A DNA stretch of 53,535 nt from Euryarchaeota archaeon UBA186 (GTDB lineage: Archaea; Thermoplasmatota; UBA186), in NCBI GenBank assembly GCA_002494765.1, contig DACJ01000072.1, forward strand, positions 1 through 53,535, read 5' to 3'. Positions within the stretch are counted from its first letter, which is position 1; each line of letters starts with the position of its first letter. Below are positions 23,026-30,597 of this stretch, piece after piece. The translations under genes were made by a program, and so were the position numbers. The notes below the pieces were generated by a model that saw only the letters and a program-made list of their open reading frames with translations, was not told the origin of the DNA and searched no databases.

Positions 23026-23892
23026 TTAGAACTGGCATTTCACGTCATGTCCAAGCCGTCCTACGGCGTCTGCTCGGCATCGCCTGCAATGCACCATCTG
23101 CTTCAAAACTTCTCCGCACTCTCCCTGCTTCCTCCTCAACTCTTCACGTGTAGGGGGCTTTAAACCCGCGAATTTGTATTGCGGTATAAGCGGTATAATA
23201 TTCTGCATGTAGACACCGAGTTCTTTCATCCTCTTCGCCACTTTCACTATCTGTTTGTCGTTTATCCCGGGCATATATACCGTGTTCACCTTGACGATTA
23301 TCTTATATTCTACCGCCTTTCTTATTCCTTCGAGTTGACTCTCCATCAGCACTCTCGCGCCCTCTTCCCCTTTCAAAATATTTCCATGGTAATCCACGAA
23401 AGAGTATATCTTTGCCCCGATCTTCGGATCGACCGCATTCACCGTGACGGTGAGATTTCCAACATCTAGTTCATTCAATATGTCTACCTTTTCCGGGAGT
23501 AAAAGACCGTTCGTACTCAAGCACTTCATCAGATGTGGAAATTTTTCTTTTACCAGCCCTAGCGTCTCGAACGTCTCGTCATTATCCAGAGGTTCCCCAG
23601 GTCCCGCTATCGCTGCGACCTTTATGTACTGAAACTTCTTTATCACCCTCTCCACATAGCTTACCGCTTCCTCCGGCGTGATTACCCTGCTGCAGACGCC
23701 GGGTCTGCTCTCATCAACACAGTCGAAATCTCTTATACAATAATTGCACTGAATGTTGCATTTGGGTGCGACCGGAAGGTGCATCCTGCCGAATATATGA
23801 CAAGCCTTCTCACTGAAGCATGGATGTTCGTTTATTTTTCTAATCTGAGAAGCCAGGAGCTCGGAATCAAACTTCATCCCCATATCCTGCAA
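23026..23892 (-). CDS. nifB: NifB, radical-SAM-domain-only form (no NifX-like C-terminal domain)
   Basis: 288 aa. HPCFSEKACHIFGRMHLPVAPKCNIQCNYCIRDFDC (CxxxCxxC radical-SAM site plus extra cluster ligands), GPGEPL, C-terminal CRRCRADAVG. Last gene of the nif block. Confidence 0.85.
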   Translation of the reverse strand: MQDMGMKFDSELLASQIRKINEHPCFSEKACHIFGRMHLPVAPKCNIQCNYCIRDFDCVDESRPGVCSRVITPEEAVSYVERVIKKFQYIKVAAIAGPGEPLDNDETFETLGLVKEKFPHLMKCLSTNGLLLPEKVDILNELDVGNLTVTVNAVDPKIGAKIYSFVDYHGNILKGEEGARVLMESQLEGIRKAVEYKIIVKVNTVYMPGINDKQIVKVAKRMKELGVYMQNIIPLIPQYKFAGLKPPTREELRRKQGECGEVLKQMVHCRRCRADAVGRLGHDVKCQF

Positions 23893-23910
23893 TATTGTCC
23901 CCTTTTGAAC

Positions 23911-24660
23911 TCAATCATCTTTGCCTGAGGTATCCTTCATCTTACAATAGCATTCCACCGTGCAATGCGGACAATCCTGAAACCCGTGAGAACGATTTTC
24001 ATCGCCTCCGTTAGAGAGCGTCTCCTTTGATGACACTTCCCGGACTTTGCCGCTGTTCAAAATTACAAACCTGTCGCCCATCTCCTTCGCATCGGTCAGG
24101 TCATGCGTGACGAATATCGTCGTGACCCCCAATTCCCTTTGTATCTGGCGGATCTCTTCCCTCAGGCATCTGCACATCCCGATGTCCAGACTGTTAAAAG
24201 GTTCGTCAAGAAGCAGCACCTCTGGAGAGGAAGCGAACACCCTGGCAAGAGCTACTCGCTGTTTCTCACCGCCGCTAAGATTTTTGGGGTACGTATGTCT
24301 TATATGCTCTATCTTCATCAACTCTAACAACTCGTCTACTTCACGCGCGATTTTTCCCGTCTTTTTTCTCTTTAACCTTATGCTATAACCGACGTTGGAG
24401 GCGACGTCGAGATGAGGGAACAACGCCAGATTCTGAAATAGATAGCCAATCCGTCGCTCATTTGTCGGGACTCCGTCAACTGGACTGCCATCGAAGAGAA
24501 CCGTTCCCTCGTAATCCGTCAATCCTGCGATAACATTGAGCAAAGTGGTTTTTCCGGAGCCGTTTGGACCCAAAATTACCAGCAGTTCTCCGTTGGGCAC
24601 CTTCACATTCAGATCCCTTAACGCATAATTTTTGATCTTTTTCAATTCGATGTCTGGCAT
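23911..24660 (-). CDS. ABC transporter ATP-binding protein (NitT/TauT-type) with Cys/His-rich C-terminal tail
   Basis: 249 aa. GPNGSGKTT (Walker A), LSGGEKQRVALAR (signature), LLLDEP (Walker B). The tail HGFQDCPHCTVECYCKMKD replaces any TOBE-type domain. Confidence 0.85.
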   Translation of the reverse strand: MPDIELKKIKNYALRDLNVKVPNGELLVILGPNGSGKTTLLNVIAGLTDYEGTVLFDGSPVDGVPTNERRIGYLFQNLALFPHLDVASNVGYSIRLKRKKTGKIAREVDELLELMKIEHIRHTYPKNLSGGEKQRVALARVFASSPEVLLLDEPFNSLDIGMCRCLREEIRQIQRELGVTTIFVTHDLTDAKEMGDRFVILNSGKVREVSSKETLSNGGDENRSHGFQDCPHCTVECYCKMKDTSGKDD

Positions 24661-24663
24661 GAC

Positions 24664-29102: not shown

Positions 29103-29461
29103 TAAATCGCCTCCTCCCCCGTCTCTCCAGTCCTTATTCTGACGGCGCTCTCGATTGGACAGACAAAGATCCTTCCGTCGCCGATCGCACCGGTCCCGTT
29201 CGTCTCCATAATTATCCTGACAAGTTCATCGATCCTTTCATCCGGCACGACCATCGTCAACATCCTTTTCGGGATGTATCGCATACCGTTCCCTTTCTCA
29301 TTCTCCGGGGCGATGTTGGTTGGAGGAGATATATATAGCCCTTTCTGTTTCCCTCTTCCCAGGACCAGCCTCACCGTGACAGATGGGAAGCCCGCATCCG
29401 CAAGCGCCCTCTTGGTCTTCTGAATGGCGTTCATGCGAATTATCGCGATTACTTCCTTCAC
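29102..29461 (-). CDS. nifI2: PII-family nitrogenase regulator NifI2
   Basis: 119 aa PII fold with an enlarged T-loop (GRGKQKGLYISPPTNIAPENEKGNGMRYIPK). Position between nifI1 and nifD. Confidence 0.85.
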   Translation of the reverse strand: MKEVIAIIRMNAIQKTKRALADAGFPSVTVRLVLGRGKQKGLYISPPTNIAPENEKGNGMRYIPKRMLTMVVPDERIDELVRIIMETNGTGAIGDGRIFVCPIESAVRIRTGETGEEAI

Positions 29462-29779
29462 TCAAACTCCCCTTCTGCCGGTTCTGATCGTGTATGCCTC
29501 CTCGACATTTGTCACAAATATCTTTCCGTCTCCGAAGCTTCCAGTTCTTGCGCCCTGTTGAATCGTCTTCACCGCATCGTCGCAATCCCCATCATCGATC
29601 ACGAGCATCAGCATCACCTTAGGGAGCTCATCGTATCTCGTGGGCCCGATCTGAATTCCCTTCTGCTTTCCCCTGCCGAAGACGTCGATCTTCGTGAGCG
29701 CGATGAAGCCCTCTTTCTCCAAACTATCGACGACCTCCTCCACCTTCTCCGGCCTAACTATCGCCCTTATCATCTTCAT
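29462..29779 (-). CDS. nifI1: PII-family nitrogenase regulator NifI1
   Basis: 105 aa PII fold ([13 protein letters not shown]...GRGKQKG...GDGKIFV). ATGA overlap with the nifH stop. Confidence 0.85.
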
Positions 29780-30597
29780 TCTATCGCTCCAAAATCGATC
29801 ATCAACTCTTCGAGCTTCTCGTATGTGATGGGAGTTGGGATCACAAAACCATCGTTTTCGATGATGCTCTTGGCCAGCTTAGAGTACTCCTCTGCCTGAT
29901 TCGATCCCGGATCATATTCAATCACGGTCTTCTTGTTGATCTCCGCCCTCTGAACGATTTTGTCCCGCGGGATAAAATGGACCAGATGCGTTCCTATAGC
30001 ACTTGAAAACGCCGTTAGAAGCCCAAGTTCATTCTCCACATCTCTGCTGTTGCAGATTATGCCTCCAAGGCGAATACCGCTACGCTCTGCGAATCGGACT
30101 ATCCCTTTACAGATGTTGTTTGCCGCATAGAGTGCCATCAACTCGCCGGATGCCACAATATATATTTCTCTTGCCTTTCCTTCTCTCATGGGCATTGCAA
30201 AGCCACCACAGACCACGTCCCCTAACACATCGTAGAATACGAAGTCCAGATCGTCAGTATATGCCCCATCCTCCTCCAATAGATTTATCGCAGTAATGAT
30301 CCCCCTTCCAGCACAGCCGACGCCTGGTTCTGGGCCCCCCGCCTCGACGCATTTTATTCCACCGAATCCAATTTGCATGACATCTTCGAGTTTCACGTTC
30401 TCTGCACCAACTTCTCGTAAGGCATCAAGAACCGACGCTTGCCTCCTCCCACCCATCAACATCCTCGTGGAGTCTGCCTTGGGATCGCAACCTATCTGCA
30501 GTATATGCTTACCCATCACTGAAAGCGCCGCGGTAAGGTTCTGCGTGGTCGTCGATTTACCAATTCCACCCTTCCCATATATTGCTATTTGACGCAT
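29776..30597 (-). CDS. nifH: nitrogenase iron protein
   Basis: Track ORF starts with GTG at 30624. The ATG at 30597 ([17 protein letters not shown]) is preceded by AGGAGAT and matches canonical NifH N-termini. GCAGRG (Cys97/Arg100) and VVCGGFAMP (Cys132) are present. Confidence 0.92.

Follow-up and report, generated by a model that had tools for sequence, protein, structure and literature searches.

The nitrogenase loci closest to the one described here are those of the methane-seep group, known from the genomes of anaerobic methanotrophic (ANME) archaea. Seep-group nif clusters are present in many ANME-1 genomes; all are ordered NifHI1I2DK, lack nifN and nifE and keep the cluster ligands, and their nearest relative is found in Roseiflexus (Chadwick et al., 2022; PMC9012536). 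In the ANME loci three ATP-binding cassette (ABC) transporter genes are located 'in place of nifEN' (ANME-3 study, 2025; PMC12180501). For Roseiflexus, NifH, NifB and NifDK were shown to be enough for synthesis of the iron-molybdenum cofactor (FeMo-co) in vitro, independently of NifEN (Paya-Tormo et al., 2024; PMC11573651), and a 2026 review considers diazotrophic growth without NifEN as still unproven (PMC13474568). In this work we analysed a stretch of 53,535 nucleotides from Euryarchaeota archaeon UBA186 (contig DACJ01000072.1, hereafter the window), which carries an intact nine-gene nif operon at positions 23026-30597. This operon probably encodes a functional molybdenum (Mo) nitrogenase of the seep group, whose cofactor is most likely matured on NifDK without NifEN. 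A sequence-only reading of the same DNA had considered EN-less sets to be confined to a few poorly characterized lineages, a view that is outdated, as the seep-group layout is published and the Roseiflexus route was shown in vitro. It had proposed either maturation directly on NifDK or nifEN encoded elsewhere; the first is the best reading because the clade lacks nifEN, but the idea was already established. Since the gene layout is published and the EN-independent mechanism is shown for Roseiflexus, only the likely role of the built-in transporter is new, and the residual interest of the locus lies in the substrate of this importer and in the regulon discussed below.

Gene calls give nine genes, all on the minus strand, in the order nifH-nifI1-nifI2-nifD-nifK-SBP-permease-ATPase-nifB (SBP, substrate-binding protein). 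nifH (29776..30597; 273 aa; TIGR01287) encodes the nitrogenase Fe protein, nifI1 (29462..29779; 105 aa; Pfam P-II 92.5 bits) a P-II-type nitrogenase switch-off regulator and nifI2 (29102..29434; 110 aa; Pfam P-II 80.1 bits) a second P-II-type regulator. They are followed by the genes for the MoFe-protein alpha subunit of the methane-seep group, nifD (27696..29102; 468 aa; TIGR01862), and beta subunit, nifK (26419..27708; 429 aa; Oxidored_nitro 394 bits). The importer consists of an SBP of the NMT1/SsuA fold with a lipobox-like N-terminus (25403..26338; 311 aa; NMT1_2 101.7 bits), a TauC/SsuC/SaoP-like permease (24664..25413; 249 aa; BPD_transp_1 90.7 bits) and an ATPase of the CysA/PotA/WtpC/ModC type (23911..24660; 249 aa; ABC_tran 129.1 bits). 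The last gene, nifB (23026..23883; 285 aa; TIGR01290 340 bits), encodes a stand-alone radical S-adenosylmethionine (SAM) NifB. nifH and nifI1 overlap by four nucleotides (ATGA), the nifI2/nifD junction is TAATG, and nifD and nifK overlap by 13 nt (ATGCGAAGCGTAA). The sequence-only reading had given these three junctions exactly, and the gene calls agree with its nine packed minus-strand genes; six of these are indeed nif genes, but the other three, which it left undescribed, form the ABC importer. It had also recognized the radical-SAM-only form of NifB, with a length of 288 aa; the nifB open reading frame (ORF) reaches a TTG at 23892, and the likely true start gives 285 aa. Similarly, the nifI2 ORF reaches a GTG at 29461 while gene callers give 110 aa on identical contigs, which is also the likely true length, and the likely true starts of NifH and of the SBP give 273 and 311 aa. 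The gap between nifK and the called ATG of the SBP gene is 80 nt long and contains AT-rich TATA-like stretches and a strong Shine-Dalgarno sequence; that between the ATPase gene and the called nifB start is 27 nt. An identical NifD is encoded on three metagenome contigs, with an unchanged gene order.

This layout is in large part that of the seep-group loci of ANME-1, -2 and -3, which share with the window the nifH-I1-I2-D-K order, the lack of nifEN and the ABC trio after nifK (PMC9012536; PMC12180501). The order nifH-I1-I2-D is found in all the ANME-1-type loci examined that contain nifH, with nifK next wherever the contig continues, and the position of nifI1 is the same in all related loci. 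The complete seep-group order, with three NitT/TauT-type ABC genes, is common to the window and loci L012, L022, L006, L027 and L031. In L012 the ABC genes directly follow nifK, in L022 and L006 they are separated from nifK by unrelated or inserted genes over about 2-7 kb, and the two ANME-2 loci, L027 and L031, read nifH-I1-I2-D-K-SBP-permease-ATPase-DUF364. The window differs from these ANME-2 loci in that nifB, and not DUF364, directly follows the ATPase gene, from the other ANME-1-type loci, in which nifB is not adjacent to the operon, and from the published seep-group loci in that the operon lies between amt-glnK-cobB-cobQ and glnA-GOGAT (glutamate synthase). Between the window and L027 and L031, the SBPs are 74% identical and the NifD proteins 71-72%; SBP identity thus tracks NifD identity, which fits inheritance as one module.

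The canonical operon of anaerobes, nifH-I1-I2-D-K-E-N-B in the deltaproteobacterial locus L018 and the Syntrophus locus L021 (with a nifHI1I2DKENX variant in Methanococcus maripaludis), has in common with the window its first five genes, NifI1/NifI2 and a final nifB; it differs in carrying nifE-nifN where the window carries SBP-permease-ATPase, and its NifD is 40-43% identical. As L018 and L021 hold E-N between nifK and nifB, the importer occupies exactly the EN slot. Two of the related loci show rearrangements. In L006 (ANME-1 GoMg1, 5100-12000) about 7 kb of genes separate nifK from the ABC genes; two large ORFs of this block start with P-loop (Walker A) motifs, and it has the appearance of an insertion, either of a mobile element or of defence genes. 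In L028 (ANME-2c Methanogaster, 1700-9700) the Oxidored_nitro genes are broken up beside transposase/integrase genes while SBP-permease-ATPase-DUF364 is intact, which indicates that the importer module can outlive the nitrogenase genes.

Several lines of evidence identify the enzyme. NifH scores 449.2 bits with TIGR01287 (cutoff 394.35), and its best match in the PDB is 6NZJ (434 bits, compared with 275 bits for MarH, 9FMG_D). NifD scores 587.3 bits with TIGR01862, the nitrogenase component I alpha subfamily (cutoff 486.05). Residues were mapped by alignment to Azotobacter vinelandii NifD, NifK and NifH references, which had been verified beforehand against PDB chains (NifD and NifK are residue-for-residue identical to them, NifH matches over its full length with 632 bits). 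NifD retains the P-cluster ligands Cys62, Cys88 and Cys154 (C46, C72 and C137 of the window NifD), the FeMo-co ligands Cys275 and His442 (C255 and H420), residues Gln191, His195, Val70, Arg96, Arg359, Phe381 and Lys426 (Q174, H178, V54, R82, R337, F359 and K404), and Arg277 and Ser278. The beta-subunit P-cluster residues Cys70, Cys95, Cys153 and Ser188 are C12, C37, C95 and S125 of the window NifK, which lacks the N-terminal extension of group I. NifH retains the P-loop, the CAGRG motif (Cys97/Arg100) and Cys132, and its VCGGF motif aligns with A. vinelandii NifH. The alignments therefore confirm what had been picked out by eye: the P-cluster cysteine contexts, Gln191/His195, Cys275, Lys426 and His442 of NifD, a NifK that is short (429 aa) yet keeps its P-cluster motifs, and the P-loop, Cys97, Arg100 and Cys132 of NifH. 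NifB aligns with the solved single-domain NifB 6Y1X with 408 bits over 271 residues and carries the CxxxCxxC radical-SAM motif and a C-terminal CRRCRADA; judged by these features, it is a NifB able to supply the 8Fe-9S-C precursor, NifB-co.

NifD is closest, among solved structures, to the NifD of Methanocaldococcus infernus (9SPZ, 555 bits, 53% identity), followed by VnfD (443 bits), AnfD (422-431), Mo-NifD (361-387) and NifE (272-348), whereas MarD of the methylthio-alkane reductase (9FMG/9D9U) gives 126 bits. NifK gives 386 bits with M. infernus 9SPZ_B and 57 bits with the K subunit of Mar (9FMG/9D9U). The CfbD model reaches 39 bits only. In a neighbor-joining tree (100 bootstraps), the window NifD is placed inside an ANME-1-type clade (100% bootstrap) that is sister to ANME-2 (100%). 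The clade is part of a radiation with no or reduced NifEN, together with Roseiflexus, Bathyarchaeia and Caldicellulosiruptor. Outside it branch NifE and the canonical NifD proteins of A. vinelandii and Deltaproteobacteria, and the window NifD lies outside the canonical groups I and II. The NifD homologues are mostly from ANME-1, Schekmanbacteria, Bathyarchaeia, Chloroflexi and Caldicellulosiruptor. The nearest protein cluster, 87% identical, contains the NifD of Ca. Methanolliviera hydrocarbonicum; identity is 80-86% with ANME-1-type sequences, 81-86% over the matched segment with the closest genomes (titled ANME-1, Methanophagales or Methanolliviera), 71-72% with ANME-2, 65% with Schekmanbacteria and 52-58% with Caldicellulosiruptor, Bathyarchaeia and Chloroflexi, Roseiflexus included. 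The window NifD is about equally similar to the NifE (39%) and NifD (40-43%) of L018 and L021, and NifK to their NifN (38%) and NifK (37-39%); this near-equality is consistent with a position close to where D and E, and K and N, diverged.

The set of genes could also be read as that of a nitrogenase-like reductase acting on a substrate other than N2, for instance by C-S cleavage as in Mar or Isr, with an SsuA-family importer delivering an organosulfonate. MarBHDK and IsrBHDK, like the window, are B-H-D-K sets without EN, radical-SAM-only NifB-like proteins accompany NFL systems as well, and the SBP and permease of the window are of the NitT/TauT (SsuA/TauC-like) type. Moreover, Isr is tied to an SsuABC-type transporter, isrBHDK being co-induced with ssuCAB in R. 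capsulatus (PMC13474568). This explanation is nevertheless very improbable. NifD and NifK are far closer to a true Mo-nitrogenase than to Mar (555 and 386 bits compared with 126 and 57) and so do not group with Mar or Nfl proteins; the homocitrate and substrate-channel residues are all retained, while IsrDK lacks the cofactor ligands, which are all present here. Mar and Isr respond to sulfur and not to nitrogen, whereas the operon described here contains nifI1 and nifI2 and is flanked by genes for an ammonium transporter (Amt), P-II, glutamine synthetase (GS) and GOGAT, which supports a nitrogen role and not a sulfur role. Sulfonate-metabolism genes are not adjacent, and the three sampled non-ANME homologues of the SBP lie in Mo-cofactor and not sulfur contexts. 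The D/K similarity, the ligand set and the nitrogen context were thus the grounds for rejecting the sulfur-salvage reading raised by the SsuA-like SBP. By the same comparisons the locus is a genuine nitrogenase and not a Mar or Nfl enzyme, which agrees with the preference for N2 reduction already expressed in the sequence-only reading.

How the cofactor of this nitrogenase is matured depends on the missing genes. The window was searched by tblastn with NifE, NifN, NifE-like, NifV, NifX, ModA, ModB, MOT1, DUF364 and glutamine amidotransferase (GATase) queries from related loci, and only nifD, nifK and cimA were matched. Homologues of nifE, nifN, nifV, nifX and modA are therefore not found within the 53.5-kb window, an absence that applies to the window and not to the genome; to this extent the earlier statement that EN, V, X and modABC are lacking is correct, although 'no modABC' overlooked the embedded ABC importer. 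Nor was nifEN found beside the ANME-1-type and ANME-2 loci examined, whose flanks covered up to 10 kb. These genes, with nifV, nifX and modABC, might be located elsewhere in the genome, in an ordinary split nif regulon in which FeMo-co is matured on NifEN: the window covers only 53.5 kb of the genome, nifB and nifV are clearly mobile among the relatives (the core operon is joined by nifB in no other ANME-1-type locus and by nifV in L012 and L004 only), and at least one ANME-2a genome is annotated as nifHDKEN (PMC12622379). We consider such a split regulon quite improbable, because ANME comparative genomics reports no nifEN for seep-group clusters (PMC9012536; PMC12180501), because the nifHDKEN-annotated ANME-2a genome is suspected to be of a Methanosarcina-like type and not of this clade, and because NifD branches among lineages whose NifEN is absent or reduced and not inside the canonical groups.

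The situation of nifV is different. A bona fide nifV (525.7 bits, cutoff 462.9) is part of the ANME-1-type cluster L012, where it is located after the ABC genes (15443-17250) and preceded by a class-I GATase gene, and a partial nifV directly follows nifK in L004 (12851-13342). The ANME-2 locus L031 has a gene for a GATase similar to that of L012 upstream of its nifH. As close relatives carry nifV in the cluster, its absence here is most likely a matter of location. The product of cimA (4155-5726), which had been proposed as a possible homocitrate source, scores 746 bits as a citramalate synthase, above the cutoff, and 225 bits with the nifV model (cutoff 463). This candidate was rejected, as it is a true citramalate synthase while relatives carry true nifV.

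We thus favour a scheme in which NifB would make NifB-co and the conversion of NifB-co to FeMo-co would take place on apo-NifDK itself, in the presence of NifH, molybdate and homocitrate, the route demonstrated in vitro for Roseiflexus; the absence of a NifEN scaffold from the clade is the reason for placing the last step on apo-NifDK. Homocitrate could come from a nifV elsewhere in the genome or from AksA, the homocitrate synthase of coenzyme-B biosynthesis, the three ABC genes in the slot of nifEN would most likely bring in the heterometal (molybdate, tungstate or thiomolybdate) and not a sulfonate, and NifI1/NifI2 would turn the enzyme off under nitrogen sufficiency. Several observations weigh against this scheme. 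The equivalog scores of NifD (TIGR01282, 507.5 bits, cutoff 653.55) and NifK (TIGR01286, 349 bits, cutoff 427.3) are too low, and that of NifB (TIGR01290, 340 bits) is marginally below the cutoff of 343.65; the NifD and NifK values do fit the divergent place of the lineage in the NifD tree. The absence of nifEN and nifV applies to 53.5 kb of the genome only, as described above. To our knowledge, 15N2 uptake has been demonstrated for ANME-2 consortia only, and not for ANME-1 or Methanoliparia; nifH transcripts of ANME-1 and Methanoliparia were found at seeps. The sequences directly show which genes are present, the retained residues, the place in the tree, the synteny and the associations in genomic context; from these we infer N2 reduction, EN-independent maturation in this organism and the substrate of the transporter. 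With nifB in cis, the nine genes form a compact unit that would lend itself, as a minimal set, to the heterologous reconstitution of an archaeal EN-independent nitrogenase.

Roseiflexus sp. RS-1 NifHBDK (PMC11573651), which is part of the same wide radiation of 'uncharacterised' nitrogenases, resembles the window in having no nifEN, a single-domain NifB and the same ligands and second-sphere substitutions. It differs by its NifD (51-53% identical), its gene order (nifH-B-D-K), the lack of nifI1/I2 and the absence of a reported ABC importer in the cluster; it is bacterial and thermophilic, and it is there that the biochemistry was done. The FeMo-co of M. infernus NifDK (9SPZ/9SQ3) is the canonical one, containing homocitrate and carbide, and the enzyme sustains growth that depends on Mo (bioRxiv 10.1101/2025.10.10.681579). 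Like the nitrogenase of the window it is archaeal, regulated by NifI1/I2 and has a short NifK N-terminus, but it comes from a hyperthermophile and belongs to a Methanococcales/Firmicutes clade with Caldicellulosiruptor, whose locus keeps a third, NifE-like gene.

These relatives bear on the possibility that the cofactor built on NifDK is of another kind (tungsten (W)-substituted, Fe-only or L-cluster-type), with the importer supplying tungstate or another ion. NifD differs from A. vinelandii NifD at second-sphere positions (I355Q, G357A, E380T, E440N and W444Y), and these differences are common to most or all of the relatives compared. In addition, it scores VnfD and AnfD above group-I NifD, an ATPase homologue in locus L029 is closest to the tungstate protein WtpC, and which cofactor Roseiflexus uses is 'yet to be verified' (PMC13474568). 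However, M. infernus NifDK, from a neighbouring clade of the same radiation, is also nearer to Vnf and has the canonical FeMo-co, and in Roseiflexus Mo increases the activity 50-fold while W sensitivity is observed (PMC11573651; PMC13474568). Furthermore, Lys426, Gln191 and His442 are retained as in Mo enzymes and the operon has no vnfG/anfG-like gene, so that another cofactor appears unlikely.

The importer that occupies the slot of nifEN does not reach the SsuABC or TauABC families: the SBP and permease scores are below cutoffs, and the ATPase is farther from TauB than from CysA/WtpC. The permease matches SaoP and TauC, all below cutoffs, and is 73-79% identical to its ANME-1 and ANME-2 counterparts; the SBP is 68-77% identical to SBPs encoded after nifK, or flanking nif remnants, in ANME-1-type and ANME-2 loci. 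The ATPase, with 221 bits for PhnT2, 218 for the sulfate protein CysA, 206 for WtpC and 168 for ModC compared with 142 for TauB, is closer to CysA/WtpC/ModC than to TauB. It contains a GMCRC motif in the helical region and a C-terminal CxxCx3CxC, both kept in all ANME-1 and ANME-2 orthologues according to the alignment; as this cysteine-rich tail is located where the L029 homologue has a TOBE domain, it may serve to sense metals or redox state. No ssuD/E, tauD or xsc-type sulfonate-utilization gene is present in any locus examined.

The contexts of the importer homologues point to molybdenum. In relatives with reduced or no NifEN, the slot downstream of nifDK contains Mo transporters and nifV, with modA-modB in Caldicellulosiruptor and an MFS_MOT1 gene in L023. 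Non-ANME homologues of the SBP, 52-58% identical, lie among Mo-cofactor or molybdoenzyme genes in 3/3 sampled loci. L029 encodes MocA (200.8 bits, cutoff 186), a regulator with a ModE domain (82.6 bits), the TOBE-containing ATPase (52% identical to that of the window; best family WtpC, 306 bits), two DUF364 proteins and YqeB (304 bits, cutoff 220); L030 encodes MoCF_biosynth, an NTP_transf_3 protein, two DUF364 copies and XdhC; L032 encodes a xanthine-dehydrogenase-family molybdoenzyme and a Tfx-type regulator. DUF364 is associated with Mo/W/V transporters (PMC2954201), and the DUF364-containing mod operon MMP0504-0507 of M. maripaludis, of which MMP0507 is annotated as ModA, is nitrogen-regulated and cofit with nifH (10.1101/2024.03.05.583561; PMC2723118). 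The importer thus resembles ModABC/WtpABC systems with DUF364 by its position beside nitrogenase or cofactor genes, its CysA/ModC/WtpC-type ATPase and the DUF364 of the ANME-2 versions; the L029 locus also shares with them a ModE-domain regulator and a TOBE domain. It differs by the NitT/TauT type of its SBP and permease, and by the cysteine-rich tail that ANME ATPases carry instead of TOBE.

From this genomic context, the chances that the ABC genes encode a non-canonical Mo/W importer feeding FeMo-co synthesis seem to us about even. The properties of the proteins themselves stand on the other side. In Pfam the SBP matches NMT1_2 and NMT1 only, and neither SBP_bac_11 (ModA/WtpA) nor PBP_like_2 (TupA). 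Its best family is SsuA_fam, with 150.7 bits just below the cutoff of 163.5 (TauA gives 50 bits, cutoff 304), and we know of no NMT1-fold protein that binds Mo or W. Neither a TOBE domain, in the ATPases of the window or of ANME, nor DUF364, searched in the window by tblastn, was found, and the published prediction for the ABC genes of ANME nif loci is transport of nitrate, sulfonate or bicarbonate (PMC12180501). PDB sequences gave weak matches of the SBP to TauA, SsuA, THI5 and an NrtA-like domain (E >= 1e-10), which are silent on the ligand, and the Caldicellulosiruptor ModA query gave no tblastn match in the window. A wider proposal, which we make tentatively as it falls somewhat short of even chances, is that this importer is an unrecognized Mo/W class on a NitT/TauT (NMT1/SsuA) scaffold, possibly adapted to thiomolybdate in sulfidic seeps and replacing ModABC as the dedicated heterometal source of NifEN-independent FeMo-co assembly, and that together with the regulator and operator described below it defines a nitrogen regulon free of canonical NrpR operators in ANME-1/Methanoliparia-type archaea. 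On the Mo/W reading, the ABC genes of all ANME nif loci would be reassigned, by context, from 'nitrate/sulfonate/bicarbonate' to probable Mo/W uptake, which bears on the acquisition of Mo by diazotrophs in sulfidic sediments.

The operon is part of a nitrogen island with the order ribbon-helix-helix (RHH) regulator, amt-glnK-cobB-cobQ, nif, glnA and GOGAT. amt-glnK (33713..35640, minus strand), encoding the ammonium transporter (TIGR00836 448 bits) and a P-II protein (Pfam), is at the head of the co-oriented island. Between it and nifH lie cobB-like and cobQ genes (30812-33655, minus strand; CobB-like 456 bits, CfbB model below cutoff) for cobyrinic acid a,c-diamide synthase and cobyric acid synthase, two glutamine-dependent amidotransferases inside the nitrogen island. 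Directly downstream of nifB is glnA for type I glutamine synthetase (21446..22780, minus strand; TIGR00653 525 bits; Pfam), followed by genes for archaeal GOGAT subunits (16327-21479, co-oriented with nif; Pfam).

The candidate regulator of the island is an RHH_1 protein (35856..36395, plus strand; 179 aa; Pfam RHH_1). Its orthologues, 71-78% identical, are encoded on the opposite strand upstream of nifH in nine ANME-1-type loci, directly adjacent in seven. A perfect 6-3-6 palindrome, TCATAA-N3-TTATGA (30676..30690), about 80-90 nt upstream of the nifH ATG, is a candidate operator, and a second perfect palindrome, TCACAA-N3-TTGTGA (35704..35718), lies in the divergent amt/RHH intergenic region. 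These are two perfect matches to TCAYAA-N3-TTRTGA in the window, where 0.6 would be expected even with one mismatch allowed. Eight ANME-1-type loci carry the same motif between -83 and -89 relative to nifH, and L004 carries it at -136. The RHH protein and the palindrome are thus a candidate nitrogen regulator and its operator, and would offer a starting point for studying how uncultured ANME-1 and Methanoliparia regulate nitrogen metabolism. The NrpR operator GGAA-N6-TTCC was rejected as the regulator site, as its 2 matches in the window are at chance level and none is near nif, glnA or amt. The region upstream of glnA (22781-23025, minus strand) contains repeated AAAGTTATGAAA / AAAGTCATAAAA units and two AATTTTTACG repeats; these resemble halves of the palindrome at nifH, and the regulator may have additional sites there. 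tRNA and Rfam scans of the window found no RNA genes.

Outside the island, the housekeeping genes for hydroxymethylglutaryl-CoA (HMG-CoA) synthase (9206-10240) and phosphoglycerate dehydrogenase (PGDH; 5769-7352) give a different picture of the host. HMG-CoA synthase has two close matches (83% and 78%), followed by diverse Euryarchaeota at about 55%, and the best match of PGDH, at 62%, represents a cluster containing an Archaeoglobus sp. protein; unlike these, nif, glnA and RHH share 71-87% identity with their ANME-1 or Methanolliviera counterparts. This contrast suggests either an under-sampled host lineage or a horizontally transferred nitrogen island. The housekeeping genes lack close named relatives, so that the host cannot securely be taken for an ANME; it may be Methanoliparia-like or a divergent relative of ANME-1. 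Lastly, the end of the window (39038-53523) contains six paralogous genes for autoproteolytic hydrolases of the C45 family (acyl-CoA:6-aminopenicillanic acid acyltransferase-like) within about 14 kb, at 39038-40549, 42273-43703, 43837-45084, 49543-51450, 52798-53523 and possibly 51459-52811.

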